Positions 10,676 through 30,279 of a DNA stretch of 30,279 bases are shown here, in pieces. The stretch is from contig JBBIRR010000044.1 of the NCBI GenBank assembly GCA_037441705.1, positions 1-30,279 of the forward strand. The letters run 5' to 3'. Position 1 is the stretch's first letter. Every line of letters starts with the position of its first letter. The DNA comes from Ignavibacteriales bacterium (GTDB lineage: Bacteria > Bacteroidota > Ignavibacteria > UBA10030 > UBA6906). The notes beneath the pieces were generated by a model that was not told the origin of the DNA, ran no database searches, and saw only the letters and a list, made by a program, of their open reading frames with translations. Position numbers and translations under genes: made by a program.

Positions 10676-10683
10676 GCGGTGCG

Positions 10684-14321: not shown

Positions 14322-14419
14322 GACATCGCTTTCGGAAAGCAATACTTCGGTGAGGCGGTTGAAAGATTGGTAAATCAGGAGAGAGATGCAACGTCAGGAA
14401 AGCCTTCGCAGAGATGATG

Positions 14420-14454
14420 TCCCTCCGCGCACACTGCTACAATGCGCGGAGGGA
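14420..14454. other. Perfect 12-bp GC-rich hairpin between the radical SAM gene and corA
   Basis: TCCCTCCGCGCA-11 nt-TGCGCGGAGGGA. There is no U tract, so it may be an mRNA-stabilising or atypical terminator hairpin. Confidence 0.55.
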
Positions 14455-14476
14455 ACGTAAGGCTGATACGCGAACG

Positions 14477-15724
14477 CTACGCTTCCACCTTCTTTCCGAC
14501 ATTATTCTCCGGCACCGCCCGCACCCAATCTCCGAAGTTGATCAGTTCCTCCATCCGGCAGGACCAGACGAGCCGGTCTTCGTACAGCGTGATGTCGGGA
14601 CAGCCGTCACACATGCTCAGCGCGCCGTTGGGCATGAAGTCCGCCGGTTGGATGATCATGATCGACTGCATGTGCAATCGCTTGAAGAAGAGTTGCGGTG
14701 AGCGAACGGCATCATGCAGGTAGGCCGATGCAGTGCGCGCAAGTCCTTTGTCGATAGGCGATAAGGCGAGCATCGAGCGGGCGCGGGCCAACACTTTCGG
14801 GTGCGTGTAGGCAAGGTAGGAGCCGGTCTTCAAGTGATGTAAGGTCTGTGCAAGCTCCATAAACTTGGGTCCTGCGTAGCCGAAGATTTTGTCTTTCGTG
14901 CCGATGCGCATCGTGAGGAGCCACTTGAAATGATCAGGCCGCTCCGTGCCGTTCAGGTATGCGCACGGCTGGAAGTCCGGATACTTCTTTCTGATTTCCT
15001 GCACAATGTCGGTGGACATGATCGAAATCTCACGCTCGCCCTGGATGGCATAGGCAATGGGAGACATATCAATTTTCTGTCCCCCGACGAAATACTCGTA
15101 GCCTTTGTGAATGGGTGCGGCCCGGAAGGCGATAAACACGAGAATGTGTACGATATCAATGTGCTTGTGCCCCCATGCAACGATCTCGGGAACGTCCTTC
15201 AGCGTGTGCCCGTACACCGTTGCGTTGAACGCGCAAGAAAGCCCACCGACGGTGGCAAGCATTTGCGCGTAGTGCAAACGCAGATCGTTCAGTTCGACTT
15301 CGGTTTTGCCTTTCATGCGCGGGCGCTGCTGGCCGCTATCGATGTGGAACGTGAAGCCAACGACGCCGGCGTTCTTCAGCGCGCGCAGCTTATCCATCGT
15401 CAGCGCCAGTCCGTTCGTGTTGATGATCGGCTTCAGCCCATCCTTCGCGATCATCTCCACAATCTGTTCGATCTGTGGATGGGTCAGGGGATCGCCGCCC
15501 GCAATGGAGACACCGTCGGTCTTGCGGAGTCGTTTGAACACTTCCAGCTCATGGCGGATTTGGTCGAGCGACTTGTGTGCCTTCGGATCGTTATTGCGAT
15601 AACACCCATCGCAATACAGGTTGCATGCGCTGGTCGGCTCCAGCCAGCTGATCGCATTGTCGGGCAGCGACCAGGGAAGCCGATACAGCTCACTGTGGTT
15701 CAACACATTGTTCGATCCTTTCAT
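14477..15724 (-). CDS. Radical SAM protein of unknown function with a C-terminal Cys cluster, 415 aa
   Basis: CNLYCDGC (CxxxCxxC), AGGDPL and INTNG; C-terminal MCDGC..WSC could ligate an auxiliary cluster. GGAGG RBS before ATG 15724. Confidence 0.9.
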   Translation of the reverse strand: MKGSNNVLNHSELYRLPWSLPDNAISWLEPTSACNLYCDGCYRNNDPKAHKSLDQIRHELEVFKRLRKTDGVSIAGGDPLTHPQIEQIVEMIAKDGLKPIINTNGLALTMDKLRALKNAGVVGFTFHIDSGQQRPRMKGKTEVELNDLRLHYAQMLATVGGLSCAFNATVYGHTLKDVPEIVAWGHKHIDIVHILVFIAFRAAPIHKGYEYFVGGQKIDMSPIAYAIQGEREISIMSTDIVQEIRKKYPDFQPCAYLNGTERPDHFKWLLTMRIGTKDKIFGYAGPKFMELAQTLHHLKTGSYLAYTHPKVLARARSMLALSPIDKGLARTASAYLHDAVRSPQLFFKRLHMQSIMIIQPADFMPNGALSMCDGCPDITLYEDRLVWSCRMEELINFGDWVRAVPENNVGKKVEA

Positions 15725-15747
15725 TGGTACCTCCATGATGTTTGGGG

Positions 15748-15792: not shown

Positions 15793-15979
15793 CTGTAAAT
15801 GAACGATGACAGCGATATGCAACTCAGAAGCCGACGCTCGCCCCAACCCCTTCCATCATCACGTCAGCCGTGCAGCCGCAAGCAAATGCCGCAGCGCAAA
15901 TCGGTTGCTCACAATCTACTCATCCCCGCCAACATTCGCAACATCGGGGCTGTGATACAAGCTGCAACCGACGGCGGTA

Positions 15980-16540
15980 TCAGAGCGAGCTGAATCGCAG
16001 AGAGAACACGACGTACTGAAAGTTGATGCCGTCATTGTCCTCGAACATGCTTGCGTTGGAGAGGTGGCGGAACATGTAGAACACGCCGAGAAAGCCGCCG
16101 GCCCACGGAACTTCAACGCCTGCACTTACGGTGGGACTGAACAGGACGTTACTCCCCAATTGGCGTTTGTTGATCTCGCGTGTGGAAATGAGGTTCACCC
16201 CGACGCCCGCTTCCAGTAGCAGACGCGGCGCGTCGTTTGAGAAGAGAATACGCGCCATAGGACTCACGCCCACGATGCCATCCCATCCACGGCTCCCTTC
16301 AGAAAATGAGACACTCTCCTCGAGATACACGACGACATTCTCACGCGAATGAAAAAACACGTGGCCGGGTCTGGAGAGGAAGATGCTGCGATGCGCCGGT
16401 TCGGTCATGGTGGTACCCTTCCCAAGGCGGATATCGAAGTCCCGCATGACGTCCTGGGCAAGAACGTGGGCTGGTGTTCCGAAGGTCAGCAGGAACAGCA
16501 CAAGCCGCAGTAGCCGATGGTGTTCGATGCGTCGAGGCAA
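15980..16540 (-). CDS. PagL-family outer-membrane lipid A 3-O-deacylase / acyloxyacyl hydrolase
   Basis: Signal peptide, amphipathic beta strands, LEAGVG and LGSNVLF; catalytic-type RHLSNASMFEDNDGIN (H-x-S-N-A...N-x-G). Confidence 0.8.
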   Translation of the reverse strand: MPRRIEHHRLLRLVLFLLTFGTPAHVLAQDVMRDFDIRLGKGTTMTEPAHRSIFLSRPGHVFFHSRENVVVYLEESVSFSEGSRGWDGIVGVSPMARILFSNDAPRLLLEAGVGVNLISTREINKRQLGSNVLFSPTVSAGVEVPWAGGFLGVFYMFRHLSNASMFEDNDGINFQYVVFSLRFSSL

Positions 16541-16630
16541 AGCCGTGATCGCGAGCCGGGTGCTGAACTACATGATGCTATGGAACTGACGGCAGAAAAG
16601 CAACGAGTTTCTTCGCGCAAACGCGGCGCC

Positions 16631-16873
16631 TCACACGGCGTTCTGCTCGTATCGCTCCGCCTGCCCTGGAAACTGCCGGAACGCAGCAACGGCGACGCTT
16701 TTGTCTCGCACAAGAACGGAAATCTTCCCGTTTTCGGCCACCACTACATGATGCGGATACACTTTCTGGACAGCCAGGCAAGCCGTTTCTTCGCTGCGAA
16801 AGTCGTTGTTCTCCAGCAGCGTGCGAACCAACTCGGAGAGAGTCGCCTTGCCGATAATCTGCTGCAATCGCAC
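16631..16873 (-). CDS. Hypothetical small protein (~80 aa, GTG start MRLQQIIGKATLSELV...)
   Basis: Fills the gap between a sigma54 promoter and the PagL-like gene and has a globular-looking composition. The annotated TTG start (16933) lies inside the promoter, so GTG 16873 is preferred. No clear RBS. Confidence 0.5.
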   Translation of the reverse strand: MRLQQIIGKATLSELVRTLLENNDFRSEETACLAVQKVYPHHVVVAENGKISVLVRDKSVAVAAFRQFPGQAERYEQNAV

Positions 16874-16929
16874 TGTATATTTTCGTGGAGGTGTTACGAA
16901 AGGAATAGAACGGTTTGGCCTTCCAAACC

Positions 16930-16945
16930 GCAAATCGCCTGCCAG
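16930..16945 (-). promoter_or_regulatory. Putative sigma54 (-24/-12) promoter
   Basis: Minus strand CTGGCAGGCGATTTGC gives GG-N10-GC with TGGCA and TTGC; it is intergenic and correctly oriented. Confidence 0.65.
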
Positions 16946-17128
16946 TCACTGATGTGAAGTGAGATACGGAAGACGAGGTGAAGTTTGCAATGATTTGGCA
17001 TCAATTCAAGGGTCGAGCGCGAGCGCACCGAACGAACGCATGTCTGTTCGTGTAAAGAGTTGAACCATCAATGCCGTTTGGAGTGTGAACTATTTTCTCA
17101 CCTGGGAGGTGAACGACCACTCAGCCGC

Positions 17129-18421
17129 TTATGCAACTATCGGCAGCGAAATAATGAACGTGGCGCCTTCGTGAGGCGTTGATTCGACCCGAATCGTTCC
17201 GTTGTGGTGCTCAAGGATGTGCTTGCAGATGATAAGTCCGTAGCCGTAGCCATCCGGCTTCGTGGTGATTTTCTCGCTGAACAGTTTGGCCATCACCTCT
17301 TCTTCGATGCCCGGCCCGTTGTCTCGAACCTTCAACCTCACTTCTTTTTTCTCCCAATCCGCTTCGGTGATGAACTCGATCGTTGCTTCCGAATACGCTT
17401 CGACGATATTGTTGGCGAGATTCAGCAGGACTTGTTGGATCTGCTCAATATCGACGTTCACCGGCGGCAATGTTTCATCCAGCGACGTGATGACGGAATT
17501 CCCTTTGAAGCGAGGAAGGAACTTCATGAATTCCGCGAAGTCGCTGACGATCTTGTTGAGGTTCATCGGCTGTAGGCGGGCGGCGGGATGCGAGCGCGAA
17601 AGGAGACTCTTGGAGAAACCTTCGATCTTGCGGACGCCGCTAATCGTCTTATCGATGATCGCGTTCAACTCCGCCGATGAGTACTCGCCGATTTTCGACT
17701 GCAAACGCTGCAGGCTCAGAAGGACAACGGACACGAGATTCTTCAGCTCATGACTGACTTCAGCCGCCAGCTCGCCTTTCATCGCCATCCGCTCCGAGCG
17801 AATGATGTGCTGGTGTGCCTGCTTGAGTTCCTCATAGGTGTTCTTCAGATTAGCATACAGGCGCGCATTGCGGATGGCGATCGCGGCCTGCCCCGCAAGA
17901 ATCTCAAACAACGAGAGCACCTCAGTTTTGTCGACCGCCTGAATGTACTTGCTGTCCACGTACATCACGCCGATCTTTTCTTCCTGTGTTTGAAGAGCCG
18001 TACACAGAATCGTTTGCAGAGCAAGGTCTACAATGCTTCGCCGCTGCTCGAACCGTTGATCGGTCAACGCGCTTTCGATGCAGAGCGATTCCCCCGTTGT
18101 GAAGACGTCCTCCAGGACACTCTTGCTGACCCGGAGATTCTCCGCGGCAATGGATTTGCCGTGCGCGTCACGACCGACGACAAACTCGAGTTTACCCTCC
18201 TTGTTGACAAGAAACAGAAAACCGCGATCGGCCCGCACGATGCGAATGGCTTCATCCGTCACCAACTCAAGAACTTCAGAAAGTTCGAGCGACGTGTTCA
18301 CCTTCCGCACCACATTCAGAATCGTTTCCAAATCGTGAAGTTTGGAATGCGATGCCGCGCTGCTTTCCGAAGTAGAATGAAGCAGTCCTCCGCTCTCGTC
18401 AATCAGTTCGTCGAGTTTCAT
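17129..18421 (-). CDS. Soluble GAF-domain sensor histidine kinase (paralogue 2)
   Basis: GAF (ADRGFLFL..IGVMYVDS..LAGQAAIAIRNARLY); H box EVSHELKN; N box QVLLNLANN; DNGPGI, TTKPDGYGYGL and GATF. No TM segment. Confidence 0.92.
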   Translation of the reverse strand: MKLDELIDESGGLLHSTSESSAASHSKLHDLETILNVVRKVNTSLELSEVLELVTDEAIRIVRADRGFLFLVNKEGKLEFVVGRDAHGKSIAAENLRVSKSVLEDVFTTGESLCIESALTDQRFEQRRSIVDLALQTILCTALQTQEEKIGVMYVDSKYIQAVDKTEVLSLFEILAGQAAIAIRNARLYANLKNTYEELKQAHQHIIRSERMAMKGELAAEVSHELKNLVSVVLLSLQRLQSKIGEYSSAELNAIIDKTISGVRKIEGFSKSLLSRSHPAARLQPMNLNKIVSDFAEFMKFLPRFKGNSVITSLDETLPPVNVDIEQIQQVLLNLANNIVEAYSEATIEFITEADWEKKEVRLKVRDNGPGIEEEVMAKLFSEKITTKPDGYGYGLIICKHILEHHNGTIRVESTPHEGATFIISLPIVA

Positions 18422-18799
18422 CCTGAGTCTTTGCTTATCCTTTCACAGAATCCTTACCCATGACCCGCTGTGTATATTCATCAGCAAATCTGTCTAATCT
18501 TGTTGTGCCATGAGTCATGAGCCTCATGTGCCGCTTCTGGCGGCGTCCCAGATTACGCTACGGCTTGCCCTGATCCTACCTACGCGGCCGATCGTCAACG
18601 GGCGGCAACGAACGGGTTTCGCTGCCTATTCCATCAGAAAAATGTGTGAAGGCCGTTTGGCTTGCCAACAAAATCATACGGGGGGTGTTGCAGGAGGGAA
18701 TGGACTCGTCCCCCATTCGAGTCTCATGCAGAACACATTTCCAAGAAAGCTTCCTGCTGTGAAGAGGCCCCTGTAATCGTTCTGCCGGGGACGGTGGCC

Positions 18800-18815
18800 G
18801 CAATGGCCATGCCAG
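18800..18815 (-). promoter_or_regulatory. Putative sigma54 (-24/-12) promoter upstream of HK paralogue 2
   Basis: Minus strand CTGGCATGGCCATTGC gives GG-N10-GC, close to the TGGCAC-N5-TTGC consensus. Confidence 0.65.
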
Positions 18816-18887
18816 TTAGAGGAGAGATGAGTTACAGTCCAAAAGCGTTGGAAACAAGCGGTTTCCCGGTGTTCACATCACTCGGGA

Positions 18888-18945
18888 TGTTACGATTTGA
18901 GACATGAGCAGTGACGGCTGGAACGAAATGTTACAATGCGGTTCA
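18888..18945. promoter_or_regulatory. Candidate tandem enhancer (UAS) sites for the sigma54 activator
   Basis: TGTTACGATTTGAGACA (18888-18904, TGT-N11-ACA) and TGTTACAATGCGGTTCA (18929-18945) are 41 bp apart and ~75-130 bp upstream of the -24 element. Confidence 0.35.
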
Positions 18946-18999
18946 TCAAACCATTACAATCCTACGAAGAGTAATAGCAGCAGTGGAGAGCACGTTGGT

Positions 19000-19776
19000 C
19001 TATAAACAGACCTCGTCTTCCGAGAATGCGGCAAGCCTGGAAACAATGATGGAAACGTCGTCTTCTCCGTTCTTCTGGACAATCGCCCTCTGCAAAGCTC
19101 CAGGAAGAGCGTCAAAGGGCTCTGCGGCCATGATTTGTTCAATCTCCGTATCGGAAACAACTGATGTCAGTCCGTCTGAGCAAAGCAACAGAAGGTCGCC
19201 ACCAGCCATCGCTGTCATTGCAATGTGGGGACTGAGGACGGGCTGCGTACCAATTGCTTGAACGAGGACATGTGACAGACGATGAGACCGTCGCGCATGT
19301 GGGAAAAAAAAGTTACCGCTCAGCGTGTGGTCCACGGTTAGCTGGCGCAATCTTCCTTTCTCACACAGATACGCTCTGCTATCGCCGACGTTGACCGTAA
19401 CAACCACGGAATGCAGGATGACAGCAGCTACAACCGTACTGCCCATAAGCTTGTCCGAACCCATACTTCGCCTGGCTTCGTACACTCGACGATGAACGTC
19501 GTGCACGGCTTGAACAAGCGCTCCAACAGGTTCAGGTATGGTCGATGTGAGATAGAGCCTCGGTAATTCAGCTGCGATCAGCCTGCTTGCTTGCTCACCT
19601 GCCTCCAGGCCTCCCATCCCATCAGCCACGATGAGAAGGGTCCCCTTCTCGGGAATGCCATGTTGCTCAGGCGTGATGACAACGCAACTATCTTCGTTCT
19701 CGCTTCGTGCCGCTCCCCCCTCGCTGAGACAAACGTATTCAATGACGGCGGGTCCCCCGCCCGAGACTTCACACAT
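19000..19776 (-). CDS. PP2C/PPM-family Ser/Thr protein phosphatase (Stp1/PrpC-like)
   Basis: RSENEDS, IVADGMGG, MGSTVV, NVGDSRAY, QLTVDHT, LLLCSDGLT and GEDDVS. Start ATG 19776 overlaps the HK stop; the exact start is uncertain. Confidence 0.92.
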   Translation of the reverse strand: MCEVSGGGPAVIEYVCLSEGGAARSENEDSCVVITPEQHGIPEKGTLLIVADGMGGLEAGEQASRLIAAELPRLYLTSTIPEPVGALVQAVHDVHRRVYEARRSMGSDKLMGSTVVAAVILHSVVVTVNVGDSRAYLCEKGRLRQLTVDHTLSGNFFFPHARRSHRLSHVLVQAIGTQPVLSPHIAMTAMAGGDLLLLCSDGLTSVVSDTEIEQIMAAEPFDALPGALQRAIVQKNGEDDVSIIVSRLAAFSEDEVCL

Positions 19777-21103
19777 CGGATGTTTCATTCGCACTCGGCG
19801 CAACTCTGTGTTGAGTGGAAACCGGGAATTTCATAATGAACGATGCCCCTTCTCCCTTCCTCGATTGGGCGGCGATGGTTCCGCCATGAGCTTCAATGAG
19901 ATGCCTGCAAATGGGAAGTCCGTACCCGTGTCCCTCAGGCTTCGTTGTCACCTTTTCTGCAAAAAGCTTGTCGAGAATTGCCTCGTCAATGCCCGGCCCG
20001 TCGTCTCGGAGCGTGAGGGAGACCATATTTGTTGCCACGTCATATTCCGTCTTCAGTTCGATCCTCGCCGTGGGCTTTGCTTCGACACTGTTGTTGACGA
20101 GGTTCAGAAGAACTTGATGGAGCTGATCGATGTCGAGATCGATCGGTGGAATATTTTCTCCCAACACAACGCAGATGTCATTCTGCTTGAACTTGGGGAG
20201 AAATCTTACAAACTCAACAAAATCGGAAGCAACTTTGTTGAGGCTCCCGGGCAGAAGCTTCGACGAGGCCCGTCGGCGTGTCAGAAGACTCTTCGAAAAA
20301 CCTTCGATCTTCCGCACGCCCGTGATGGTCTTTTCGATCAGCGTGTTGATTTCCTGAAGCGACACCGTGCCTGCCTTCCGCTGCATCAACTCAAGATTGA
20401 GCAATACAACTGCGACCAGGTTCTTCAGCTCATGACTTACCTCCGCGGCCAGTTCCCCCTTCATGGCCATTCGCTCGGACTGAATGATGTGTTGATTGGC
20501 CTGCTTCAGTTCTTCGTACGTCCTCTTCAGATTATCGTACAAGCGGGCATTCTTGATGGTAATGGCGGCCTGTCCCGCCATGATCTCAAAGAGCCGGAGG
20601 ATTTCTTCTTTGTCCACAGCCTGAATGAATTTGCTGTCAACATAGATGACGCCGATTTTTTCTTCGTGCGTTTGCAGAGGGGCACAAATGATCGTCTGCA
20701 ACTCTAAATTCATGATGCTTTGCCGTCGTTCAAAGCGCTCATCGTTCAAAGCGTTCTCGATGCAGAGCGACTCGCCCGTGGTGAACACATCCTCTAATAC
20801 ACTCGAACTGACGTGAAAATGGTCGGCGCTGATTGACTCGCCGCGAGCGTTCCGACCGACGACAAATTCCAGCTTACCATCTGGTGATGCGAGCATCAGG
20901 AAGCCTCGATCGGCGTTCGCAATGCGAATGGCCTCATCCGTTACCAACTCCAGCACATCCTTCAGCACCAATGAGGTATTGATCTTCCGGACAATATTGA
21001 GGATTGTCTCGAGGTCCTGCGCGGTTGACCTTCCGGGCTGAGCCTCGACGGTCTCAGTGACCGAGGCTGCAAGTTCCCGATTTAGGAGTTCATCCAGATT
21101 CAT
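19769..21103 (-). CDS. Soluble GAF-domain sensor histidine kinase (paralogue 1)
   Basis: GAF (ADRGFLML..IGVIYVDS..MAGQAAITIKNARLY); EVSHELKN; QVLLNLVNN; DDGPGI, TTKPEGHGYGL and GASF. No TM segment. Confidence 0.92.
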   Translation of the reverse strand: MNLDELLNRELAASVTETVEAQPGRSTAQDLETILNIVRKINTSLVLKDVLELVTDEAIRIANADRGFLMLASPDGKLEFVVGRNARGESISADHFHVSSSVLEDVFTTGESLCIENALNDERFERRQSIMNLELQTIICAPLQTHEEKIGVIYVDSKFIQAVDKEEILRLFEIMAGQAAITIKNARLYDNLKRTYEELKQANQHIIQSERMAMKGELAAEVSHELKNLVAVVLLNLELMQRKAGTVSLQEINTLIEKTITGVRKIEGFSKSLLTRRRASSKLLPGSLNKVASDFVEFVRFLPKFKQNDICVVLGENIPPIDLDIDQLHQVLLNLVNNSVEAKPTARIELKTEYDVATNMVSLTLRDDGPGIDEAILDKLFAEKVTTKPEGHGYGLPICRHLIEAHGGTIAAQSRKGEGASFIMKFPVSTQHRVAPSANETSDV

Positions 21104-21138
21104 GCGTGCGCACCGGCTTCTGTTTCCATCATCCTGTC

Positions 21139-21702
21139 TTACTGGAGCCTTCCGAATCCATACTGGGAAAAGTGATTGATCTGCACAATGAATCTCCTCC
21201 CCTGCAAGTCAACCACCGTCGGCTGCGGCTCATAGTCACGCGTTACCGGATTGTAGTAGCAGCACGTCAGTGTTGATGGATCGATTGCACCGAGTTCAAG
21301 TTCGTCGAACGGGACGATGAGCTGGCACGGCCGCAGAAACACCAGCCCATCAGGATAAAACCTGAATATTCGGCGAGGCATATCCAACATGCCGGGAGGG
21401 GGCGTTTTGCGCACCACGGTGTAGCTGATCCACTGCGGCGCTAACACTGCACCAGATGGAACGGTAAACGACGTGGTGGCGACATTCAGGGTCGCCCCGA
21501 ACAGGGGTTTCACCAGGCTGACAGAGAAGCCAACCAATGAATCCGGAAGCGAAATGGCATCCAGCTGATCTGCAACGGGACCGTTGTTCACCTGGGCAGC
21601 GGCACCTGTACGCTCTAACGGGGCATTCAGTTCGCCATCATGGCGGCAACCGAGAAAGAGGGCCAAGACAATCAAGCCCGAGGTAAGAAGACGACGATGC
21701 AT
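21139..21702 (-). CDS. Lipoprotein with ZU5-like domain ending in an HFS motif
   Basis: MHRRLLTSGLIVLALFLG-C lipobox; ZU5-like pattern FTVPSGAV..FRFYPDGLVFLRP..YYN..YE..VQINHFSQYG. Start is 21702 or 21711. Confidence 0.72.
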   Translation of the reverse strand: MHRRLLTSGLIVLALFLGCRHDGELNAPLERTGAAAQVNNGPVADQLDAISLPDSLVGFSVSLVKPLFGATLNVATTSFTVPSGAVLAPQWISYTVVRKTPPPGMLDMPRRIFRFYPDGLVFLRPCQLIVPFDELELGAIDPSTLTCCYYNPVTRDYEPQPTVVDLQGRRFIVQINHFSQYGFGRLQ

Positions 21703-21967
21703 AGGCTCCATTAGCACGTGTGGTGACTGATGTATGCTGTTGAGTTAACGTTCTTACAACAATGTATGGGGGGATCCGTGCGTACACAGACGTCTTCTCA
21801 CTATCTATCCGCATGCCACGAACGAAAAGCGCACACAGGGTAACGGTTTTTTGATTTTTGACTTGTAGATCGAGGGGCAAAATGTAGAATCAGGAAAGAA
21901 AAACTTCAAAAGGAAAAAACGAGGCGGGTTCGTGCGTGAGAGAAGCGAAGCGGAGTGTCTTACATAC

Positions 21968-23392
21968 TTACTTTGCCTTCTTTGCGTTGCGCAGAATGCG
22001 ATCCAGGCGGGGTCGAGAGACTTTCAGGATTCTCGCTGCTTTCATCTTATTGCCTCCAGCATACTCGAGCACCTTCTGCGCCAACATACGTTCTACCTCG
22101 TGTGCCGAGGCATGTTCCATTGGTACGCACAAGACAAGGGTCTCACGCGCGCCAGCTGAGTCCGATGAGGGAGACACGGCCGGTCGTTTCTGCGTTTCAG
22201 AAAGATACGAAGCATTCACCTCAAAGTCTCCCTCTGTGAGCCAGTCACCTTCTTCGAGCAAGACCGCACGCTCGACCGCATGCTTCAGCTCACGCACATT
22301 GCCTTCCCAGGGTCGCTCGATGAGCATCTGAAGTGCCGACGCTGTAATCCCCTTGATTTTCTTCTTATAGAGATGATTGAACGCTTTCAAAAATGCATCA
22401 ACCAGGAGAGGAATGTCCTCAACGCGTTCGGCAAGGCTCGGCAATTCCAGCGGCAGAATTTTCAGGCGATGGTACAGGTCCTTTCTGAACTGTCCTGCCT
22501 TTATCTTCTGTTCCAGGTCGGCACTCGTGGCGGCGATGATGCGCGCCCGCACCGGCACATCCCTGATGCCGCCTAACCGGCGCATCGTCCGATCTTCGAG
22601 CACCTTCAGCAGCTTGGCCTGCGTCGTCAGTGAGATATCGCCGATCTCATCGAGAAAGATTGTTCCATCACCGGCAAGTTCGAATAGCCCGATCTTCCGC
22701 TCCTTGGCATCGGTGAACGCTCCTCGCTCGAACCCGAACAATTCTGCTTCCAGCAAGCTCTCAGGCAACGCCGTGCATGCAATGTCAACGAAGGGGCTGT
22801 TGCGGTTGGCGCTGTTGTAGTGAATGGCCCGGGCAAACAATTCTTTCCCCGTTCCTGTTTCGCCGGTAATGAGCACCGTGCGCGCATTGTTTTTGATGAC
22901 CGTGCGGGCACGTTCGATAGTTTGCTTGAGACGCGGCGATGTGCCGATGATCGAGCGGAAATCGTACACCTCCTGCTGGGTCTCGATAAAACGTTCCTTC
23001 CGCCTCTTGACCTGCCAGTCGTTGTACATGAGAACCACATGATCGCGGATCTTGCGGTGTTCATCCGGAAAGATGAAGTAGGCCGAGACGCCGATCTTCA
23101 CTAACTCAACGGCAAAACCGTGATCGGGCTCCCGCGCAAGGGCAATGATAGGAACGTCAGGAATCTCGGAGCAGAACTCCCGGAGCGACGAACGCAGCGT
23201 CTGCGTATCCCGCGTAACGTCAATCAACACCAGACGCGGCACATTGAACAAAGCCCTGCCCACGAGGAAACCCGGCGAGGAGGCAAACTGCAGATGCACA
23301 TCATCGGCCGGCATGATGAGGCGTCGCACATCAGCCATCATTTCCTTTCTTCCGCAGAGGAGTATGTTGAATCTGTCTTTTGCCGAAGCCAC
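21968..23392 (-). CDS. Sigma54-dependent enhancer-binding protein (Fis-type HTH) with degenerate receiver domain
   Basis: LITGETGTGKE, ELFGFERGAFTDA, IFLDEIG, QAKLLKVLE, FRKDLYHRL and WEGNVREL; HTH GNKMKAARILKVSR; N-terminal REC-like fold (PRLVLID..PIIAL). Confidence 0.93.
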   Translation of the reverse strand: MASAKDRFNILLCGRKEMMADVRRLIMPADDVHLQFASSPGFLVGRALFNVPRLVLIDVTRDTQTLRSSLREFCSEIPDVPIIALAREPDHGFAVELVKIGVSAYFIFPDEHRKIRDHVVLMYNDWQVKRRKERFIETQQEVYDFRSIIGTSPRLKQTIERARTVIKNNARTVLITGETGTGKELFARAIHYNSANRNSPFVDIACTALPESLLEAELFGFERGAFTDAKERKIGLFELAGDGTIFLDEIGDISLTTQAKLLKVLEDRTMRRLGGIRDVPVRARIIAATSADLEQKIKAGQFRKDLYHRLKILPLELPSLAERVEDIPLLVDAFLKAFNHLYKKKIKGITASALQMLIERPWEGNVRELKHAVERAVLLEEGDWLTEGDFEVNASYLSETQKRPAVSPSSDSAGARETLVLCVPMEHASAHEVERMLAQKVLEYAGGNKMKAARILKVSRPRLDRILRNAKKAK

Positions 23393-23407
23393 GAAGGAGA
23401 TTCCCGC

Positions 23408-26400
23408 TTAAGATGGTGTGAGTGATTCGATCGTAGCCAACACGCGATCCCTATGGTCTGCCGCCAGGTACTTCCTCTTCAATTCATCCGATCGAAAATG
23501 GGAGAGAAAGTACTTAAGCACCAAACGCGCCTTCGTCAGGAACTCCCTTGCACGTTCGTATTGGCCGCGCTCATGGTATGCGTGTGCGAGAGCGTAGGCG
23601 AGCTTCCATGTTGCTTCGCAGACGGGTTCCTTTGCAATTGCATCCATGCCGCGCTTGAAGTAGACGATCGCCTTTTCCGGGACGGCATCGGAGCACACAT
23701 TTGCGATCATCCCCAACAGGTAATCAGCTTCGGCAACAACGAGGGGGAAAGACGCGGCGTGAGGGCTTTGGCGCACGTGCAGCAGCATCCTAGCGGCCGT
23801 GCTACTGTCCCCTTCGTGGAAATGACATTCCGCGCGACGGATCATAGCAAGAAAATACAATTCCCCGCGCTCGTCACTCCTCGAGCGAGCGCATGCGCTA
23901 TCGAAGCTGCTGGCCGCTTCGCGGAAGTTGCCTTGCTTTTGCCGGCACACCCCTAGAAGGAAGTCGTGCAGCATCCCGAACGCTTCGAGGCCATGTTCCA
24001 TCATCTGGACTGACGCCTGACGCAAGTATTCTTCCATTTCGTTTGCTTGTCCGAGTTCTCCAAAAACCTCTGCGATATGGAGATAAACTTCCGTCAAACC
24101 GTGAGCGTTGTCCATCGCTACATACAGGTCCTTTGCCAGTTGCCATGTCTGCAGTGCTGCTTCATATTCGCCTTCGGCAAACTGGACTTCACCGAAATTC
24201 GTCAGCGTGTGAGCAAGGGTAATCTTCGAGTCCGTCCGCCTACACAGATCAAGCGCCGTCGTGTAAAATTCCTTTGCCTTGCTATATTGTTTGAGATTGT
24301 AATGTGCAATGCCGAGATTGCTATAAATTTGCGCCTGCTGGTTGAGCGTTCCAAAATCGAGGCTTGCTTTCAGCGCACGTTCCCAATACCGGATTGCCTC
24401 CCGGTAATCGCCTTTGGCACTCAGGGCATTGCCGATATTGTTGATGGCGTTCGTCACTTGACTCTTTTCATTGAGCAGTTCGTACACCTTCAGCGCCTCT
24501 GCAAAGTAGTGTACGGCGTCGTCAAAACGATCCTGAAAGAAACTGGCAATACCCAGGTCTGTGTAGATCGCTCCGAGAAGGCGATTGTTTTTTAGACCGA
24601 TGGCCGTGGCCAACTGTTCCCGGCAATTTTCTTCTGCTTGCCTGAAGTGGCCCGCGGCAATCTGCAAGCCGACGAGTTCCTGTCGTAATTCAAGGCGTTC
24701 GACTTCATTCGTTGAACGCTGGAGGGCGGCGCTGATATACTCCTCCGCCTGGTCACTTGCCCCCAGCCGCGAGAGGGCAAGGCCCATATATTTCCAGATC
24801 ACGCCTTGCTCTTCAGCTTGCATGAGAGGCAGCAAAGCACTGCCGGCTTCTACGGCCTCCTTGAACATCCCTGCTCGGTAGAGCACCATCACGCGCCTCA
24901 TCTGCAAGCGCAACGTAGAACCACGGTCAGCTCCCTGTTCCGATTCGTTGATCGCGTGTTCAATGAGTTGAACGGAGCGTTGCAGAGCAAACCGTTCCAG
25001 TCCTGCTTCGGCCGCCTGTTCATAATATAACGCCGCCTTCTGGTGGTTGCCCGATACTGAGCACTGAAATGCAATCTCCTGCATCCCCGTGAAGTCGTCT
25101 TTTGTGATGTCCTGCTCAAGCGTCGCTGCAATGAGTGCGTGAAGCTCCGCCTTCTCTCGCCCAATCGAGTCATAGATCGCATCCTTCAATCTCTTCATTC
25201 GGATGAAAAGTACCTGGTCGGCATTGGCCGAGCCGAGGAACCCTTCAAGGAGCAGAAAGCGAAGATGATCGCGGCTGCGCAGATGATGAAACGGCAAGAG
25301 GCGAATCAGGATCTCGCGGCGGACAGGATACTGAAAGCATGCGACAATACTTACCACGAGTTGGCGTTCCTGACTGAGTTTTCGGAAGCGCGCGAGCAGG
25401 AATTCATCGATATTTTTCGGCAGGCGCGCCTCAAGCCCGCTCACCACCCGTTTCGCCGTTTCGGCATTCCTCAGTTCCTCAGGCGTAACCACGTCCGCAA
25501 GCGCATTGAGCGCCTCTACGAGAACGCCCGGCGTTCCACCATATAGAGAGAAGAGTAATGAGCCGATGTCGCCTGCTGCAGGCCCCAGATCAAGCGCCGA
25601 TGTGCACATCTCCGTCACCTCATCGGCCGTCAGTTCTTCAAGTCGAATCATCTGCGCAATGCCTGCAAGGGATGAACCGGCCTCCTCGCCCGATTGTGCT
25701 GCAAGCAAAATGATCTTGCCCGCCGGCGCATCACGCAACACGGTTCGGAGAACCTTCAGTGAAGACTCGTCGGCAAGTTGGAAATCATCGGCCACGAGAA
25801 CCAGCGGGAACACGCCGCTGCATTCGCCTAAGAATCTCGAAACGGTCTCGATGAAGGCATCCTTCTTATCTCCCCACAGATCGAAGTGGAAGGAATCGCC
25901 ATCGTCAAGGCCCAAGGTCCTGGCGAACCTGTCGACAATTGCGCTCCCCTCGTTCGAGAACGAGCGGACGTCGCTTCCGAGCAGCGGAAGCGCCGAGGCG
26001 ATTGCCTGAAACGGAATGCCGTTGGCGAGGGCTTCAAGTTCATAGACATGCACCTCGCAACAACGGGCGTACGTGATAACCTCGCGGAGGAATGTGGTCT
26101 TTCCGATCCCCTCGCCGCCCGCAACAACGACTGCGTTCGGGCGAGGGATATCACTGGGCCCTCCGAGGGCATCAATGGCATTGTGAACGACGGCTAACTC
26201 ATTTTTACGACCGACAAACCTCGGCTGGCGAGCCAGACCGAAATACGATTCCAGAAGCTCGTTGCCTGATGGCATTTCGCTCACCAGTGCTCGTGCGGCT
26301 TCCTCGGCAGAGCCGAACCGGCGCTGCGGGTTTTTCTCCATCAGTCCCCGAATCACCGCGCGCAGTCGAGAGCTGCCACCTGTCGAAAATGTAGCCTCAT

Positions 26401-27100
26401 CACTCAGTATGCGTTTAACAAGTTCGACCGGACTCCTCGCTTCGAACGGACATCGACCCTCCAGCAAATGAAAGAATGTTGCACCCAGGGAGTACAGGTC
26501 CACGCGATGATCGAACGCCTTACCCTCCAACAATTCCGGTGCAGTGTATTCCAGCGTTCCGCGAAGCGACACATCCAGAACTTCTTCACGCTTCTTGCTG
26601 AACCCGAAATCCATGAGCTTGACCAAAGGCGCCTCAGATACGCCCTTCTCTCCCACCAGCGCAAGGTTCTGCGGCTTCACGTCGAAGTGAATGATTCCTT
26701 CACGATGAATGTAATCCAGCACACTGAGCGTTTGCAGCAGAACCACCTCCAGAAAGGCTTCCTTCCGTGCGGGATGGACGCTCGTTGCAATCCATTCAAG
26801 CGGGTCTGCACCTTGCACAAACTCCATCGTGAAGAAGCGCCGATGAAGCAAGAACTCCTCATGCGCATGGCGCACGAGACCGAAATCAAAAATGCGGACG
26901 AGATTGGGATGCGAAAGCTTGATGAGCTGCGAGACCTCATTGCGAAATGCCTCGTCACTTGCCACACCAACTTTCTCGGCGCTGTGTAGGATTTTTATTG
27001 CGAGACGTCGGTTCCTTTTCAGCGTATCTTCGATTTGAAACACTTCGCCGCTGCCACCTTCGCCCAGCTTCTCGACAATACGATAGCGATAGTTGATCAT
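23408..27100 (-). CDS. Ser/Thr protein kinase - STAND (AAA_16/MalT-like) ATPase - TPR protein, ~1230 aa
   Basis: Kinase motifs LGEGGSG, AIK, IIHFDVKPQN, DFG, GTLEYTAPE and DLYSLG; P-loop region FVGR, GGEGIGKT, LVLVADDFQLAD and GGTPG; TPRs IYTDLG, AINNIG, IYSNLG and TLTNFG. ATG 27100 overlaps the upstream TGA. Confidence 0.92.
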   Translation of the reverse strand: MINYRYRIVEKLGEGGSGEVFQIEDTLKRNRRLAIKILHSAEKVGVASDEAFRNEVSQLIKLSHPNLVRIFDFGLVRHAHEEFLLHRRFFTMEFVQGADPLEWIATSVHPARKEAFLEVVLLQTLSVLDYIHREGIIHFDVKPQNLALVGEKGVSEAPLVKLMDFGFSKKREEVLDVSLRGTLEYTAPELLEGKAFDHRVDLYSLGATFFHLLEGRCPFEARSPVELVKRILSDEATFSTGGSSRLRAVIRGLMEKNPQRRFGSAEEAARALVSEMPSGNELLESYFGLARQPRFVGRKNELAVVHNAIDALGGPSDIPRPNAVVVAGGEGIGKTTFLREVITYARCCEVHVYELEALANGIPFQAIASALPLLGSDVRSFSNEGSAIVDRFARTLGLDDGDSFHFDLWGDKKDAFIETVSRFLGECSGVFPLVLVADDFQLADESSLKVLRTVLRDAPAGKIILLAAQSGEEAGSSLAGIAQMIRLEELTADEVTEMCTSALDLGPAAGDIGSLLFSLYGGTPGVLVEALNALADVVTPEELRNAETAKRVVSGLEARLPKNIDEFLLARFRKLSQERQLVVSIVACFQYPVRREILIRLLPFHHLRSRDHLRFLLLEGFLGSANADQVLFIRMKRLKDAIYDSIGREKAELHALIAATLEQDITKDDFTGMQEIAFQCSVSGNHQKAALYYEQAAEAGLERFALQRSVQLIEHAINESEQGADRGSTLRLQMRRVMVLYRAGMFKEAVEAGSALLPLMQAEEQGVIWKYMGLALSRLGASDQAEEYISAALQRSTNEVERLELRQELVGLQIAAGHFRQAEENCREQLATAIGLKNNRLLGAIYTDLGIASFFQDRFDDAVHYFAEALKVYELLNEKSQVTNAINNIGNALSAKGDYREAIRYWERALKASLDFGTLNQQAQIYSNLGIAHYNLKQYSKAKEFYTTALDLCRRTDSKITLAHTLTNFGEVQFAEGEYEAALQTWQLAKDLYVAMDNAHGLTEVYLHIAEVFGELGQANEMEEYLRQASVQMMEHGLEAFGMLHDFLLGVCRQKQGNFREAASSFDSACARSRSDERGELYFLAMIRRAECHFHEGDSSTAARMLLHVRQSPHAASFPLVVAEADYLLGMIANVCSDAVPEKAIVYFKRGMDAIAKEPVCEATWKLAYALAHAYHERGQYERAREFLTKARLVLKYFLSHFRSDELKRKYLAADHRDRVLATIESLTPS

Positions 27101-28299
27101 GCGGACACTCCGGCTCGGCGTTCGGCGACGGAATGCAGCGCGAGCAGAATCGCGGCAAGGACAAGTCCGGGAAACACACCCAACCACCACCCGGTAGGCA
27201 TGTAGGAGAGTGCCTGGCCGAGCATGTTTCCCAGACTCGGCGTGGGCGGTTGAACACCTAATCCCAGGAAGCTCAACGATGCCTCGGCGAGTACGGCGTT
27301 ACTGAATTGAATTGTTGCCGCGGTGACAAGAAGGGGCTTGACGTTCGGCAGAATATGCCTGAGCAAAATTGTTGTTGCCCGCTGGTTCAGAAGTTTCGCT
27401 GCAAGGACAAACTCGCGCTCACGCAAACGGATTACCTCCATGCGAACGGTGCGCGCAATTCCCATCCATCCCGTGAACGAAAGAATGAGAATGAGGGTGA
27501 AGACCGAAGGCTGAAGAAATGCCGTCATCCCTACAACAAGAAACAAACTCGGAATGGCAAGCATCAGGTCCGTGAACCGCATCAATAGCGAGTCCACAAA
27601 CCGGGTCGTGTAGCCGGCAAGGAATCCGACAAGCGTCCCAATGCACACAGCCCCGAGTGCCGCGGCAAGTCCGATAGCCGTGGAGACCCGTGCTCCGTAC
27701 ACAACCCTGCTGAAAACGTCACGGCCGTTGTCGTCCGTACCAAAGAGAAAAATGACCGGCTGAGGGTACGCCTCGTTTTGCGGAAGAGCGGCCGTCGCGC
27801 CGGCGAATCGCTCGGGGCGGTGCAGAAGGAAGGTCGAAGTCGTGCGTACTGTGCGTGCAATCCAACTCTCGTCGCTGCTCATCGTTGATTCATCGTGGGT
27901 GAAAGTGCGCACACCAGCAGAAAGCGGCGGAAGAAGCCTCGTCGTCAGCAACTCCCCCTGCACATGCGGATGTACGGGCGAAACGAACGGAGCAGTCATG
28001 ATAACAAAGGCGAGCAGGAGGAGCGCCTTCTCAGCAACACATGAAGGTTGTGTCGGAACCTGCGGCCGCATCAGCGATCGAAGAGCGACCGCGCCTCCGA
28101 GCGTCCAGACAACAAGCGCAATCCAGTATTCCAACAGCTCTACACGCCAGAATGCATCGAGAATGTGGCGTTCCCAAAAAGCTGCCATGGCGAACGACAG
28201 GAGAGAAAGAACACTCGCCCACATGATATCCGACCTCACCCATGTGATAGCGGCAAAGACAAGCACGGCGCCGAGCAAAATGTATCTTGAGAGATTCAT
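27097..28299 (-). CDS. Peptide/nickel ABC transporter permease (DppC/OppC type) with extended N-terminal TM region
   Basis: LFGTDDNGRDVFSRVVYGARVS, EFVLAAKLL (EAA loop), RHILPN and AEASLSFLGLGVQPPTPSLG; ATG 28299 lies 4 nt after the upstream stop. Confidence 0.92.
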   Translation of the reverse strand: MNLSRYILLGAVLVFAAITWVRSDIMWASVLSLLSFAMAAFWERHILDAFWRVELLEYWIALVVWTLGGAVALRSLMRPQVPTQPSCVAEKALLLLAFVIMTAPFVSPVHPHVQGELLTTRLLPPLSAGVRTFTHDESTMSSDESWIARTVRTTSTFLLHRPERFAGATAALPQNEAYPQPVIFLFGTDDNGRDVFSRVVYGARVSTAIGLAAALGAVCIGTLVGFLAGYTTRFVDSLLMRFTDLMLAIPSLFLVVGMTAFLQPSVFTLILILSFTGWMGIARTVRMEVIRLREREFVLAAKLLNQRATTILLRHILPNVKPLLVTAATIQFSNAVLAEASLSFLGLGVQPPTPSLGNMLGQALSYMPTGWWLGVFPGLVLAAILLALHSVAERRAGVSA

Positions 28300-28303
28300 C
28301 GGC

Positions 28304-29266
28304 TCATCGGGCCAGTCGGATACGTGGGTCGAGAAGGGCATTGGCCACGTCGGCAACGAGGTTGCCGAGCACAACAACGACTCCGGCAACCAAAACGCAT
28401 CCCATGACGAGTGGGTAGTCTCGTGCGAAGATCGCATGAACCGTAAGTTGCCCCATGCCCGGCCAGGAAAAAAGGGTTTCGGTAACCAGCACTCCGGTCA
28501 TCAGTACGCCAATCTCGACTCCGAGGAGAGAAACTACCGGAGATGCGGCGTTTGGGAGAACATACGATCGGAAGACGCGGCCGGATGAAAGTCCCAAGCT
28601 CCGTGCGTACAATACGAACTCTTGCTTCTGGACATCGCGTACACTACTGCGCAAGTATCTCGCAAACGCTGCAGCAGCAGGGATTGCGAGCGTGAGCGAG
28701 GGAAGCACAAGATGCTGAAGCAGATTTGGAAATGAGCCATAATGCTGAGATGAATACATCTGAGACGATGGAAGCACGCCCAAGCCATATGAGAAGCAAA
28801 GCAGCAAGATCATCCCTACCCAAAACGATGGGACGGTGTATACGGCAAGAAGGAAGCCGGAAAAAATCTTCTCGATTCTCTTTCCGTCAAGAAAGAAAGT
28901 CGGCAGCGCAAGAAGCAATCCAAGAACAACCTCCATCACCAATGCTGCAGCAGCAAGAATGACGGTATTCGGAAACACGCCGGCGATGACGTTGAGGACC
29001 GGTTGGCTGCGCGTGAATGATGTGCCCAGGTCGCCCGACATCACAGAGCGAATCCAGATGAAATACTGTTCAACGATTGGCCGGTCGAGTCCAAGCTGCA
29101 AACGAAGTTGGTCACGAACCGAGGCCGGCACCGAGGGAGAAATCAGCACATCGGTGACGTCACCCGGCAGGAATCGGGAGAGAAAAAACACGAACGTCAC
29201 GAGTCCGACTATGAGCGGAAGTGCGCCGGCCAAGCGCCGTATGATGTATCCGAGCAGCGAGTTCAG
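28304..29266 (-). CDS. Peptide/nickel ABC transporter permease (DppB/OppB type)
   Basis: LPGD, LGLDRPIVEQY, GDLGTS, PSFWVG, ARSLGL and ETLFSWPGMGQL..ARDYPLV. The frame is open upstream through GYIIRRL to CTG codons at 29257/29266; first TTG is at 29233. Confidence 0.92.
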   Translation of the reverse strand: MNSLLGYIIRRLAGALPLIVGLVTFVFFLSRFLPGDVTDVLISPSVPASVRDQLRLQLGLDRPIVEQYFIWIRSVMSGDLGTSFTRSQPVLNVIAGVFPNTVILAAAALVMEVVLGLLLALPTFFLDGKRIEKIFSGFLLAVYTVPSFWVGMILLLCFSYGLGVLPSSQMYSSQHYGSFPNLLQHLVLPSLTLAIPAAAAFARYLRSSVRDVQKQEFVLYARSLGLSSGRVFRSYVLPNAASPVVSLLGVEIGVLMTGVLVTETLFSWPGMGQLTVHAIFARDYPLVMGCVLVAGVVVVLGNLVADVANALLDPRIRLAR

Positions 29267-29267
29267 C

Positions 29268-30279
29268 TTACTTCTCCTCGAGGGTCCATTGCCATGCTTT
29301 GTGTGTTGTGCCGAGGATGCCGATATTCTGCCCTTTCACCCGCTTGTTCACGCCCACAAGATCGTTGATCCAGAAGAGAAACGTGTAAGGCTGTTCATCC
29401 TGCACGATCCGTTGGAATTCTTTCCAGAGCGGAGCGGCATCGGTTGCGCGGCTAACGGTTTTGGCGGTCCGAAGGATTTCATCCACCCGAGGGTTGCGAA
29501 ATCCCACCAGGTTGAACGGCGCCCGCTTCAAGTCCGAATTCCACCAGACATCCAACTCCATTTGTAATGGAAGTCGGAAGCCGGCGATCCAGGCGTCGTA
29601 TTTTCTCTGCATCAAATCATTCCAGAACGTCCCTCGTTCCACCTGCTCGATCCTCGCGTCAATCTTTACGTCGCGCAGGCGCTGCTGCACGACAGCAGCA
29701 ATCACCTCACGCAGGTCGTTGCCGGACGCAATCTTGATCACGAACGAGAACTCGGTGCCGCCTTTGTCGAGCACACCATTGCCATCGCTATCAACCCAGC
29801 CTTCCGCGCGCAGCAGGTTCTGCGCGCGCTGCCTGTCAAAAGGGAGTGGCTTCAATGTATCGTCGAACGCCCATTTGAAAAGCGGTGAAATCCCGCCCGC
29901 AGCGGCCGCACCATGGCTGCCGAGATACGCACGCACGATTTCCTCCCGATCAATACTCATCGTAAGCGCGCGGCGGACGTTTTTCGATCCAAATAACCGA
30001 TGCGGCCGGATGATGCTACCGTTGGATTTCCTGTACATCTCGTGGTCAATATTGTTCCAGCCGATGAAGTCATAATCTCTACCAATCGTTGAAATGATCT
30101 GCACCGTCGTTGACCGCGAGAGAGAGGCGACATCCTCGAGTCGTAAGCCGCCGACGATGTCCACTTCCCCTGATTCAAGTTGTGCGACGCGTGATCTGTA
30201 ATCGGGGAGGACTTTGAACACGAGGTGGGAGAGATTCGGTTTGATGCCGCACCAACCAGACTTGTTCGCAGCCAGGACG
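29268..30279 (-). CDS. Peptide ABC transporter substrate-binding protein (family 5), 5'-truncated by the window edge
   Basis: LESGEVD, VRRALTMSIDREEIV, FDRQRAQNLLRAEGWVDSDGNGVLDKGG, N..GFRNPRVD and DEQPYTFL; the frame stays open to the window end. Confidence 0.92.
   Translation of the reverse strand, partial: VLAANKSGWCGIKPNLSHLVFKVLPDYRSRVAQLESGEVDIVGGLRLEDVASLSRSTTVQIISTIGRDYDFIGWNNIDHEMYRKSNGSIIRPHRLFGSKNVRRALTMSIDREEIVRAYLGSHGAAAAGGISPLFKWAFDDTLKPLPFDRQRAQNLLRAEGWVDSDGNGVLDKGGTEFSFVIKIASGNDLREVIAAVVQQRLRDVKIDARIEQVERGTFWNDLMQRKYDAWIAGFRLPLQMELDVWWNSDLKRAPFNLVGFRNPRVDEILRTAKTVSRATDAAPLWKEFQRIVQDEQPYTFLFWINDLVGVNKRVKGQNIGILGTTHKAWQWTLEEK

Follow-up and report, generated by a model that had tools for sequence, protein, structure and literature searches.

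Why should the genes of an ATP-binding cassette (ABC) importer run, on one strand, into those of a Ser/Thr kinase, a sigma-54 activator, a small lipoprotein, two histidine kinases and a PP2C phosphatase? Such a block was found in an Ignavibacteriales bacterium (assembly GCA_037441705.1, contig JBBIRR010000044.1), in a stretch of 30,279 nt which was analysed as a whole and is called the window here. The original prediction, made from the letters of this stretch, read the block as a candidate new signalling system, its combination of parts not being recognised as a described one, in which an envelope-derived peptide is imported and switches on the kinase. Our analysis makes it highly likely that the cassette is a conserved functional unit of the Fibrobacteres-Chlorobi-Bacteroidetes (FCB) group (Ignavibacteria/Bacteroidota). 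What the unit senses is a separate question, for which a self-made peptide is one tentative answer. The combination of parts and the minimal ZU5 lipoprotein family appear undescribed, although every part comes from a known family, and full-text literature searches on the combination returned no paper describing such a system, in agreement with the first impression.

Gene order and conservation of the cassette

All cassette genes were located on the minus strand, and their domains, assigned with Pfam and NCBIfam, bear out the gene order, domain content and common orientation proposed at the outset. From the 5' end of the block, the features are as follows.

29268..30279, minus strand: family-5 substrate-binding protein (SBP), SBP_bac_5 (Pfam E 4e-36), its 5' end cut off by the window edge
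28304..29233, minus strand: ABC importer permease B, BPD_transp_1 (E 1.8e-42) and BPD_transp_1_N
27097..28299 (alternative start 28437), minus strand: ABC importer permease C, BPD_transp_1 (E 2.9e-25) on the C-terminal half only
23408..27100, minus strand: Ser/Thr kinase-STAND-TPR protein of 1230 aa, Pkinase (E 2.5e-40), AAA_16 (E 4.2e-15) and many TPR families
21968..23392, minus strand: sigma-54 activator (enhancer-binding protein), Sigma54_activat (E 9e-64) and HTH_8 (Fis-type helix-turn-helix, HTH)
21804..21818, minus strand: sigma-54-like -24/-12 element 5' of the lipoprotein gene, TGGCAT-N5-TAGA
21139..21702 (alternative start 21717), minus strand: lipoprotein of 187-192 aa, lipobox LFLGC, without a Pfam or NCBIfam match
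21166..21174, minus strand: HFS motif of the lipoprotein, from sequence and model
21142..21168, minus strand: predicted released tail SQYGFGRLQ (9 residues), downstream of the predicted F/S cut
19769..21103, minus strand: first histidine kinase (HK1), a soluble GAF histidine kinase with GAF_2, HisKA and HATPase_c matches
19000..19776, minus strand: PP2C Ser/Thr phosphatase, PP2C (E 6.9e-13); Stp1/IreP-type match (E 2.2e-48) below cut-off
18800..18814, minus strand: sigma-54-like promoter TGGCATGGCCATTGC, one mismatch to consensus, 186 nt past the PP2C stop
17129..18421, minus strand: second GAF histidine kinase (HK2), by domain calls, 63% identical to HK1
16930..16944, minus strand: third sigma-54-like site TGGCAGGCGATTTGC, one mismatch to consensus, function doubtful

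The stop codon of permease C and the start codon of the kinase share an ATGA overlap, spacers of 15 nt and 35 nt separate the kinase from the activator and the lipoprotein from HK1, and the HK1 stop and PP2C start overlap by 8 nt. All of these spacings had been quoted before and were reproduced, so the block can be called tight at these junctions, but not at the wider gaps of 250 nt 5' of the lipoprotein gene and 578 nt 5' of the HK2 gene. Because both wide gaps hold sigma-54-like sites, the block should comprise at least three transcription units. The first likely contains the importer, kinase and activator genes; the second likely starts at a sigma-54-like promoter and contains the lipoprotein, HK1 and PP2C genes; the third likely follows a second sigma-54-like promoter and contains HK2 in the window, or the gene of a TPR protein in the related locus L001. 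No ABC ATPase gene was found within the window. Neither the kinase, the activator, HK1 nor HK2 has a 19-residue segment reaching a Kyte-Doolittle value of 1.6, and the single hydrophobic stretch of PP2C (residues 110-128) lies inside its catalytic core; the five signalling proteins are therefore without transmembrane segments, as had been claimed.

Relatives of the kinase were searched for among proteins and genomes. Among 7999 candidates scored, 697 proteins matched at E <= 1e-20, and about 90 of the best 120, which were listed, are ~1230 aa long and align over 95-100% (mostly 100%) at 34-100% identity. The few named relatives among the matches listed are all from metagenome-assembled genomes (MAGs) of Ignavibacteria or Bacteroidota. 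An alignment of 84 listed proteins (P0006-P0092, leaving out the partial sequences P0030, P0073 and P0076 as well as P0093 onward) was used as the query of a genome scan, which picked generic kinase motifs. The 80 loci kept of 602 matching stretches included three with a full-length kinase at the family level, all in FCB-group MAGs; their kinases are 47% (L001), 28% (L002) and 23% (L003) identical to that of the window. The other 77 loci carry ordinary kinases and served as the negative control. When the window proteins were compared by BLAST with the open reading frames (ORFs) of each locus, the SBP, both permeases and the activator occurred together in 3/3 family-level loci, and the SBP and permeases in 0/77 control loci. 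The order SBP-permease-permease-kinase-activator was confirmed by Pfam in L001, L002 and L003. In L003 and L002, ORF coordinates place the end of permease C across or directly against the start of the kinase; the junction in L001 was placed from a tblastn match starting at 4580, with the start codon unverified and the listed ORF beginning earlier at a TTG.

The lipoprotein gene directly follows the activator gene in 4/4 loci (the window and L001-L003). The HFS C-terminus is visible in 3/3 complete lipoprotein genes, ending in HFSRYGWGN in L003 and in HFSRYIFGRVTDR in L001, where a 10-N scaffold gap (10188-10197) breaks the gene and its middle part is missing. The L002 contig stops 70 nt into the gene, and the truncated gene opens with a lipoprotein signal peptide. 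Behind the sigma-54-like site of the lipoprotein gene, the transcription unit of L001 continues with a GAF histidine kinase and PP2C as in the window, and that of L003 with a TPR protein and a GAF histidine kinase. Equal sizes of the longest contigs of lipoprotein and kinase clusters were taken as a proxy for co-location; such equality was seen in four further, independent pairs (89089, 11777, 22535 and 18622) besides the window's own. Most lipoprotein matches of the profile search described below belong to the L003-like subfamily, whose kinases are too distant to be among the matches listed. The original prediction would have been given up had the importer and lipoprotein genes failed to accompany the kinase and activator genes in other genomes; instead, the importer, kinase and activator genes are collinear in 3/3 related loci and the lipoprotein gene follows in 4/4.

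The lipoprotein family and its HFS tail

A first search with the lipoprotein found only five relatives, and a profile search found 66 proteins. In the 69 members obtained from the two together, HFS is present in 69/69, 7-15 residues from the C-terminus, and a lipobox-like motif in 55/69. The subfamilies are 17-25% identical to each other, and H, F and S are three of just five invariant columns, which is in line with the earlier reading of HFS as an autoproteolysis-type motif. When 1.84 billion representatives were searched exhaustively with the profile, 5617 matched at E <= 1e-3, of which 1217 reached E <= 1e-10 and 395 reached E <= 1e-30; nearly all of the 150 best are 180-220 aa long and align end to end. 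The unannotated family in which its sequence places the lipoprotein is thus large, with at least 395 clusters at 50% identity. Among further representatives, 141/145 have HFS near the C-terminus, with a tail of exactly 7 residues in 103 of the 141, tails of up to 24 residues, and the consensus S-R-Y/F-G-F/W-x-R/K/N. The four exceptions are P0225 with HFT, P0286 with HFC, P0229, in which the motif is lost, and P0224, a protein of 1815 aa with 19 short profile matches. Thr and Cys are the only other residues able to serve as the nucleophile.

The fold was identified through a structure model, because a sequence profile search of the PDB with the first lipoprotein alignment gave a chance-level match only (E 1.6). 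In the AlphaFold2 model of the window protein, residue 60 onward has pLDDT values of 70-97, mostly 86-97, and the domain, with ~90, forms a beta-sandwich. The best Foldseek matches in the PDB are the ZU5 domains of ankyrin, ZO-1 and UNC5b (top match 3kbu_C, E 3.7e-5, TM score ~0.5-0.6), followed by GAIN domains and the FIIND of NLRP1. The lipoprotein is therefore predicted to fold as a ZU5 domain, in support of the assignment first made by eye. Pfam ZU5 gave 0 matches for the window lipoprotein and matched 2/69 family members at E >= 0.0054, below threshold; in one look-alike cluster of the Atlas, ZU5 is annotated on 50% of the members. HFS occupies residues 178-180 of the model, in the turn between the strand 171-178 and the last strand, 184-187.

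ZU5, GPS and Nup98 domains have been described as one autoproteolytic superfamily, with ZU5 present in bacterial surface proteins (PMC3482391, as far as the accessible part of that article goes). In bacterial GAIN-like domains, cleavage between F and S of HFS was proven by Edman sequencing and the fragments stay associated; ZU5/GAIN domains are regarded there as modules sensitive to force or unfolding, and the available portion of the report states that the C-terminal fragment has no known signalling role (10.64898/2026.05.12.724683). The lipoprotein resembles the autoproteolytic domains that yield the Stachel peptides of adhesion GPCRs and the bacterial MAIN domains (e.g., B. subtilis YfkN) in its beta-sandwich with H-F-S in the turn before the last strand. 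However, the bacterial MAIN proteins, in the accessible part of the same source, are surface enzymes or adhesins of large size in which the domain is followed by a cell-wall anchor (10.64898/2026.05.12.724683), whereas the protein here is a lone lipid-anchored domain that, unlike them, ends 7-15 residues past the predicted cut in the 69 members (up to 24 elsewhere).

The importer, kinase, activator and their promoters

The importer has the part list of the PepT family (Opp/Dpp/Nik), with the SBP and two permeases in the window and two ATPases in L002 and L003. The SBP orthologues of L001-L003 are full-length and carry lipoprotein signal peptides, and the permease B orthologues are 34-59% identical to that of the window. 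The two ATPase genes of L002 and L003 are located upstream of the SBP gene in divergent orientation, and their best NCBIfam matches, below cut-off, are to NikD/NikE of the short type; in the window, the corresponding place would be immediately beyond its end. No substrate-specific equivalog (oligopeptide, dipeptide, nickel or opine) matched the importer above the NCBIfam cut-off. The best matches are Opp4A for the SBP, Opp2B (nickel) for permease B and Opp4C for permease C, all far below the curated cut-offs. In 4/4 loci, permease C is 400-450 aa long and has about three extra N-terminal hydrophobic segments ahead of the canonical DppC/OppC-like core, a part that may be a docking or sensing module. 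Its orthologues in the related loci are as follows.

L001, 3388-4587: permease C
L002, 7486-8835: permease C
L003, 5291-6586: permease C

The kinase protein has the architecture of STAND proteins, namely an N-terminal effector (the kinase, residues 36-296), a P-loop NTPase (AAA_16, 324-493) and a helical-repeat sensor (TPR, ~810-1221), as numbered in the 1260-aa ORF, which runs 30 residues ahead of the 1230-aa protein. The catalytic residues of the kinase and the GxxxxGK P-loop are kept in the 84 full-length relatives, with G328 and G333 invariant and K334 present in >=90% (1230-aa numbering). A match to TPR_MalT was below cut-off (E 1.2e-9), and no HTH was found among the Pfam matches of the protein. 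MalT and the Mycobacterium kinase PknK likewise combine an N-terminal effector, a P-loop STAND NTPase and a C-terminal helical-repeat sensor; here, in contrast, translational coupling ties the kinase gene to that of an ABC permease, and the gene of a sigma-54 activator comes next. When the TPR region (kinase residues 640-1230) and the C-terminal 30 residues of the lipoprotein were modelled as a complex, in a run without controls, the score was 0.02 and the mark 0.32, which counts neither for nor against binding.

Fused forms of the kinase were found in other phyla. In a Zixibacteria MAG (L007, 5749-10920), one protein of 1724 aa contains Pkinase, AAA_16, TPR, GAF, sigma-54 AAA+ and HTH_8 in a row, and no family-5 importer or HFS lipoprotein gene is adjacent at this locus. 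The Planctomycetes protein P0111 has the same fusion plan, and P0113, also from Planctomycetes, ends in three GAF domains, HisKA and HATPase. These single chains carry the same kinase-STAND-TPR module with the outputs in cis, which here are separate genes, and in L007 and P0111 a GAF domain precedes the activator, where the window protein has a pseudo-receiver. As sequence arrangements, the fusions support a direct functional link of the kinase module to both kinds of output.

The N-terminal 150 aa of the activator are predicted to form a receiver fold, whose best matches include atypical receivers of the CpaE/TadZ type; Pfam Response_reg did not match the window activator. The column of the acceptor Asp reads D, D, E and gap in the four loci, and the only invariant positions in the domain are I10, D31, E72 and P109; the pocket, Thr and Lys positions were assigned by eye from sequence. 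By model and sequence, the N-terminus is thus judged to be a pseudo-receiver. The AAA+ domain, with a GAFTGA-type loop, and the HTH match those of NtrC-type regulators, while the set of receiver acceptor Asp and pocket does not. The sigma-54 contact loop is GAFTDA in 4/4 loci, a form listed among the functional loop variants (PMC4641369, in the part available). Pneumococcal RitR, with StkP/PhpP, is an atypical response regulator under Ser/Thr kinase control. The likeness to RitR lies in a receiver fold without a usable acceptor Asp beside a Hanks kinase and a PP2C, although RitR is not a sigma-54 activator.

Transfer of phosphate from His to Asp on the activator is unlikely because the acceptor Asp is not conserved, and phosphorylation of its receiver by the histidine kinases was rejected as a candidate mechanism for this reason. 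The initial proposal, in which histidine phosphorylation and resetting by PP2C gate sigma-54 transcription, has to be revised in both respects. Since HK1 and PP2C are encoded downstream of a sigma-54-like promoter shared with the lipoprotein gene, they look like outputs or feedback of the activator instead of upstream gates. HK1 has 73% identity with the one histidine kinase of L001 and 42% with that of L003, and HK2 appears from sequence to be a lineage-specific paralogue of HK1. The twin GAF kinases noted at the start are thus real in the window but not general: in both L001 and L003, a single GAF histidine kinase is accompanied by a cytoplasmic TPR protein, which is homologous between these two loci and has no window counterpart. 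These stand-alone TPR proteins (L001 12938-13987 and L003 12501-13757; 26.5% identical, E ~1e-37) offer another candidate for the receptor of the tail peptide. PP2C was found in the window and L001 only, and not in the flank of L003.

Promoters were searched for with the strict consensus TGGCAC-N5-TTGC and with a pattern relaxed at -12, TGG[CT]A[CT]-N5-T[TA]G. Over the whole window, matches with <=2 mismatches were not above chance (38 observed against 33.8 expected), so the weight of the sigma-54-like sites lies in their position and conservation between loci and not in the window-wide count. On the coding strand, one-mismatch sites to the strict consensus are located at 18814..18800 and 16944..16930. 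Both had been named as promoters, and both exist, but the second is doubtful as a promoter, since it overlaps a terminator-like hairpin (16931..16910). An ORF of 80-100 aa behind it (16631-16873) had no relatives in Pfam, NCBIfam, the 80 loci or the Atlas. The first site has a counterpart in L001, TGGCATATTGATTGC, which lies 177 nt past the PP2C stop, compared with 186 nt in the window, and ~90 nt ahead of the TPR-protein gene. The spacer between the activator and lipoprotein genes contains a relaxed-pattern site on the coding strand in 4/4 loci, and that of L002 is a perfect TGGCAC-N5-TTGCA, 205 nt past the activator. The chance of each spacer site, calculated from shuffle means and spacer lengths, is ~0.006-0.01, a rough value because the pattern was relaxed post hoc.

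Scans for sigma-70-type promoters and terminators gave chance-level results, and Rfam matched nothing at E <= 1 in 15900-30279. The ~380 nt from the post-PP2C site to the HK2 start (18422-18799) held no convincing ORF and no Rfam match, and the 369-nt leader 5' of HK2 folds no better than shuffles (z -1.13). Downstream of the cassette in L003, a relaxed sigma-54-like site, TGGCATTATATTTGA (17990-18004), precedes by ~30 nt the gene of a sodium:solute symporter (18034-19668), which may be part of the regulon.

The rest of the window contains other genes. Pyrimidine genes at 44-3079 encode an amidohydrolase/dihydroorotase-like protein, aspartate carbamoyltransferase and a phosphoribosyltransferase (PyrR/UPRT-like), and the first two ORFs overlap as listed. 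A 750-aa protein with a type IX secretion C-terminal sorting domain (3841-6093) and a PagL-like lipid A deacylase (15980-16540) agree with a diderm host of the FCB group. Unrelated housekeeping genes at 6327-15736 encode an HrpB-type helicase, an EamA transporter, an amidohydrolase, a mechanosensitive-channel TM-helix protein, an aspartokinase with ACT, CorA and a radical SAM protein.

A proposed peptide loop and its alternatives

From this anatomy we propose a self-made peptide loop, running from self-cleavage of the lipoprotein to feedback on its own gene, as a tentative reading whose probability we put somewhat short of even. By analogy with related bacterial and animal ZU5/GAIN domains, the exported lipoprotein would cut itself between F and S. 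Strain on the domain, or its unfolding, would then free the last strand (SQYGFGRLQ in the window, a heptapeptide in most relatives), which would be caught by the lipoprotein SBP and carried inward by the ABC importer. Binding of the imported peptide to the TPR sensor of the STAND kinase would yield an active kinase that turns on the activator, probably via Ser/Thr phosphorylation of the pseudo-receiver. The activator would drive more lipoprotein as positive feedback, PP2C as a reset and the GAF kinase(s) as a relay to targets elsewhere. The fuller claim, that the system is the diderm FCB counterpart of peptide pheromone and tethered-agonist signalling, with a strain-released ZU5/GAIN lipoprotein heptapeptide imported to a STAND kinase that controls a sigma-54 regulon, is rather unlikely in our estimate.

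Among the closest known circuits are the RRNPP systems of Firmicutes (e.g., PlcR-PapR and Rap-Phr), in which an exported precursor yields a short peptide that is re-imported by Opp and bound by a cytoplasmic TPR sensor, often in an autoinducing manner. The proposed loop would share the exported precursor and the cytoplasmic TPR sensor, and would use an importer of the Opp/Dpp/Nik family. The RRNPP receptor is an HTH regulator or a phosphatase, whereas the one here would be a 1230-aa kinase-STAND-TPR protein; the RRNPP propeptide has ~40 aa and is cut by external proteases, whereas the precursor here would be a folded lipoprotein of ~190 aa that putatively cuts itself; and the propeptide gene adjoins the receptor gene in RRNPP systems, whereas the activator gene lies between the receptor and lipoprotein genes here. 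The output also differs in being a sigma-54 activator, the hosts are diderm FCB bacteria, and the tail is conserved rather than diversified.

Several observations weigh against the peptide loop. The tail is highly conserved even across distant relatives; such conservation is no less expected of a segment that simply forms the last strand of the fold, and it contrasts with the diversified pheromones known from peptide quorum sensing. The importer parts score best against a mixture of Opp4, Nik and opine models, all below cut-off, and no response regulator is visible for the histidine kinases. Three of the four sites 5' of the lipoprotein gene lack the canonical GC at -12, and the pattern was relaxed after the data had been seen. 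Moreover, the gene context was seen in only four loci.

The main rival to the peptide loop is that an external ligand (an oligopeptide, a nickel/metallophore complex or an opine) is imported, that the STAND kinase senses the substrate or its flux and switches the activator, and that the lipoprotein is a regulated envelope protein, such as an SBP helper, with a structural HFS tail. We consider it possible, well short of even probability. In its favour, Nik, Opp4 and Cnt models fit the importer parts to a similar degree, and the ATPases belong to the short NikD/NikE type; a transporter-sensor complex would suit both the translational link between permease C and kinase and the additional permease C segments in 4/4 loci, and a tail strongly conserved across distant taxa fits a structural role. 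However, this reading does not explain the retention, in 4/4 loci, behind the activator and a sigma-54-like promoter, of a ZU5 protein that ends right after an invariant H-F-S/T/C, nor why HFS and the tail are the most conserved part of a protein with 17-25% identity between subfamilies.

A sensor of envelope damage that works without peptide import is improbable. In the threonine-phosphorylation pathway TagQRST-PpkA-PppA of Pseudomonas type VI secretion, clustered genes for a lipoprotein, an ABC transporter, a Hanks kinase and a PP2C mediate a response to envelope damage, and membrane damage triggers signalling by TagQ/TagR (PMC13713981 and PMC7817224, in the parts available). The same cast is present here, so that the lipoprotein and the transporter could signal to the Ser/Thr kinase by contacts and PP2C could reset it, and the response of ZU5/GAIN modules to force or unfolding would suit such a role (10.64898/2026.05.12.724683, in the part available). 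PpkA, however, is membrane-spanning, TagST is not a binding-protein-dependent importer, and the system acts via FHA on type VI secretion. None of these features is found here: the kinase has no membrane segment, the transporter is a binding-protein-dependent importer and not a LolCDE-like module, and no FHA or type VI secretion domains were among the Pfam matches of the window or L001-L003. The rival is weakened above all because the kinase is soluble and the transporter a true importer.

That the block consists of neighbouring but functionally unrelated operons, held together by shared ancestry, is very improbable, for although context was available for only four loci of one superphylum and the block has at least three transcription units, the order persists with the kinase at 23-28% and the lipoprotein at ~19% identity, importer and kinase genes meet in stop/start overlaps in the loci that were examined, sigma-54-like sites are found again at corresponding positions, and fused kinase-GAF-activator and kinase-GAF-histidine-kinase proteins exist in other phyla.

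To our knowledge, peptide re-import to a cytoplasmic TPR receptor is a trait of Firmicutes, and we know of bacterial ZU5/GAIN self-cleavage only as a way of shedding surface enzymes. If the peptide loop is true, it would link these two phenomena in another superphylum, and would provide the first signalling role of a bacterial GAIN/ZU5 C-terminal fragment and the first Opp-plus-TPR peptide circuit outside Firmicutes. The unannotated lipoprotein family, with its at least 395 clusters, would gain a function, and it would become clear how a bacterial STAND kinase is switched on and feeds a sigma-54 activator whose receiver does not work. Should the peptide loop prove wrong, the link between ABC importer and STAND kinase would remain: it is conserved, and offers bacterial Ser/Thr signalling a new input route that can be tested.

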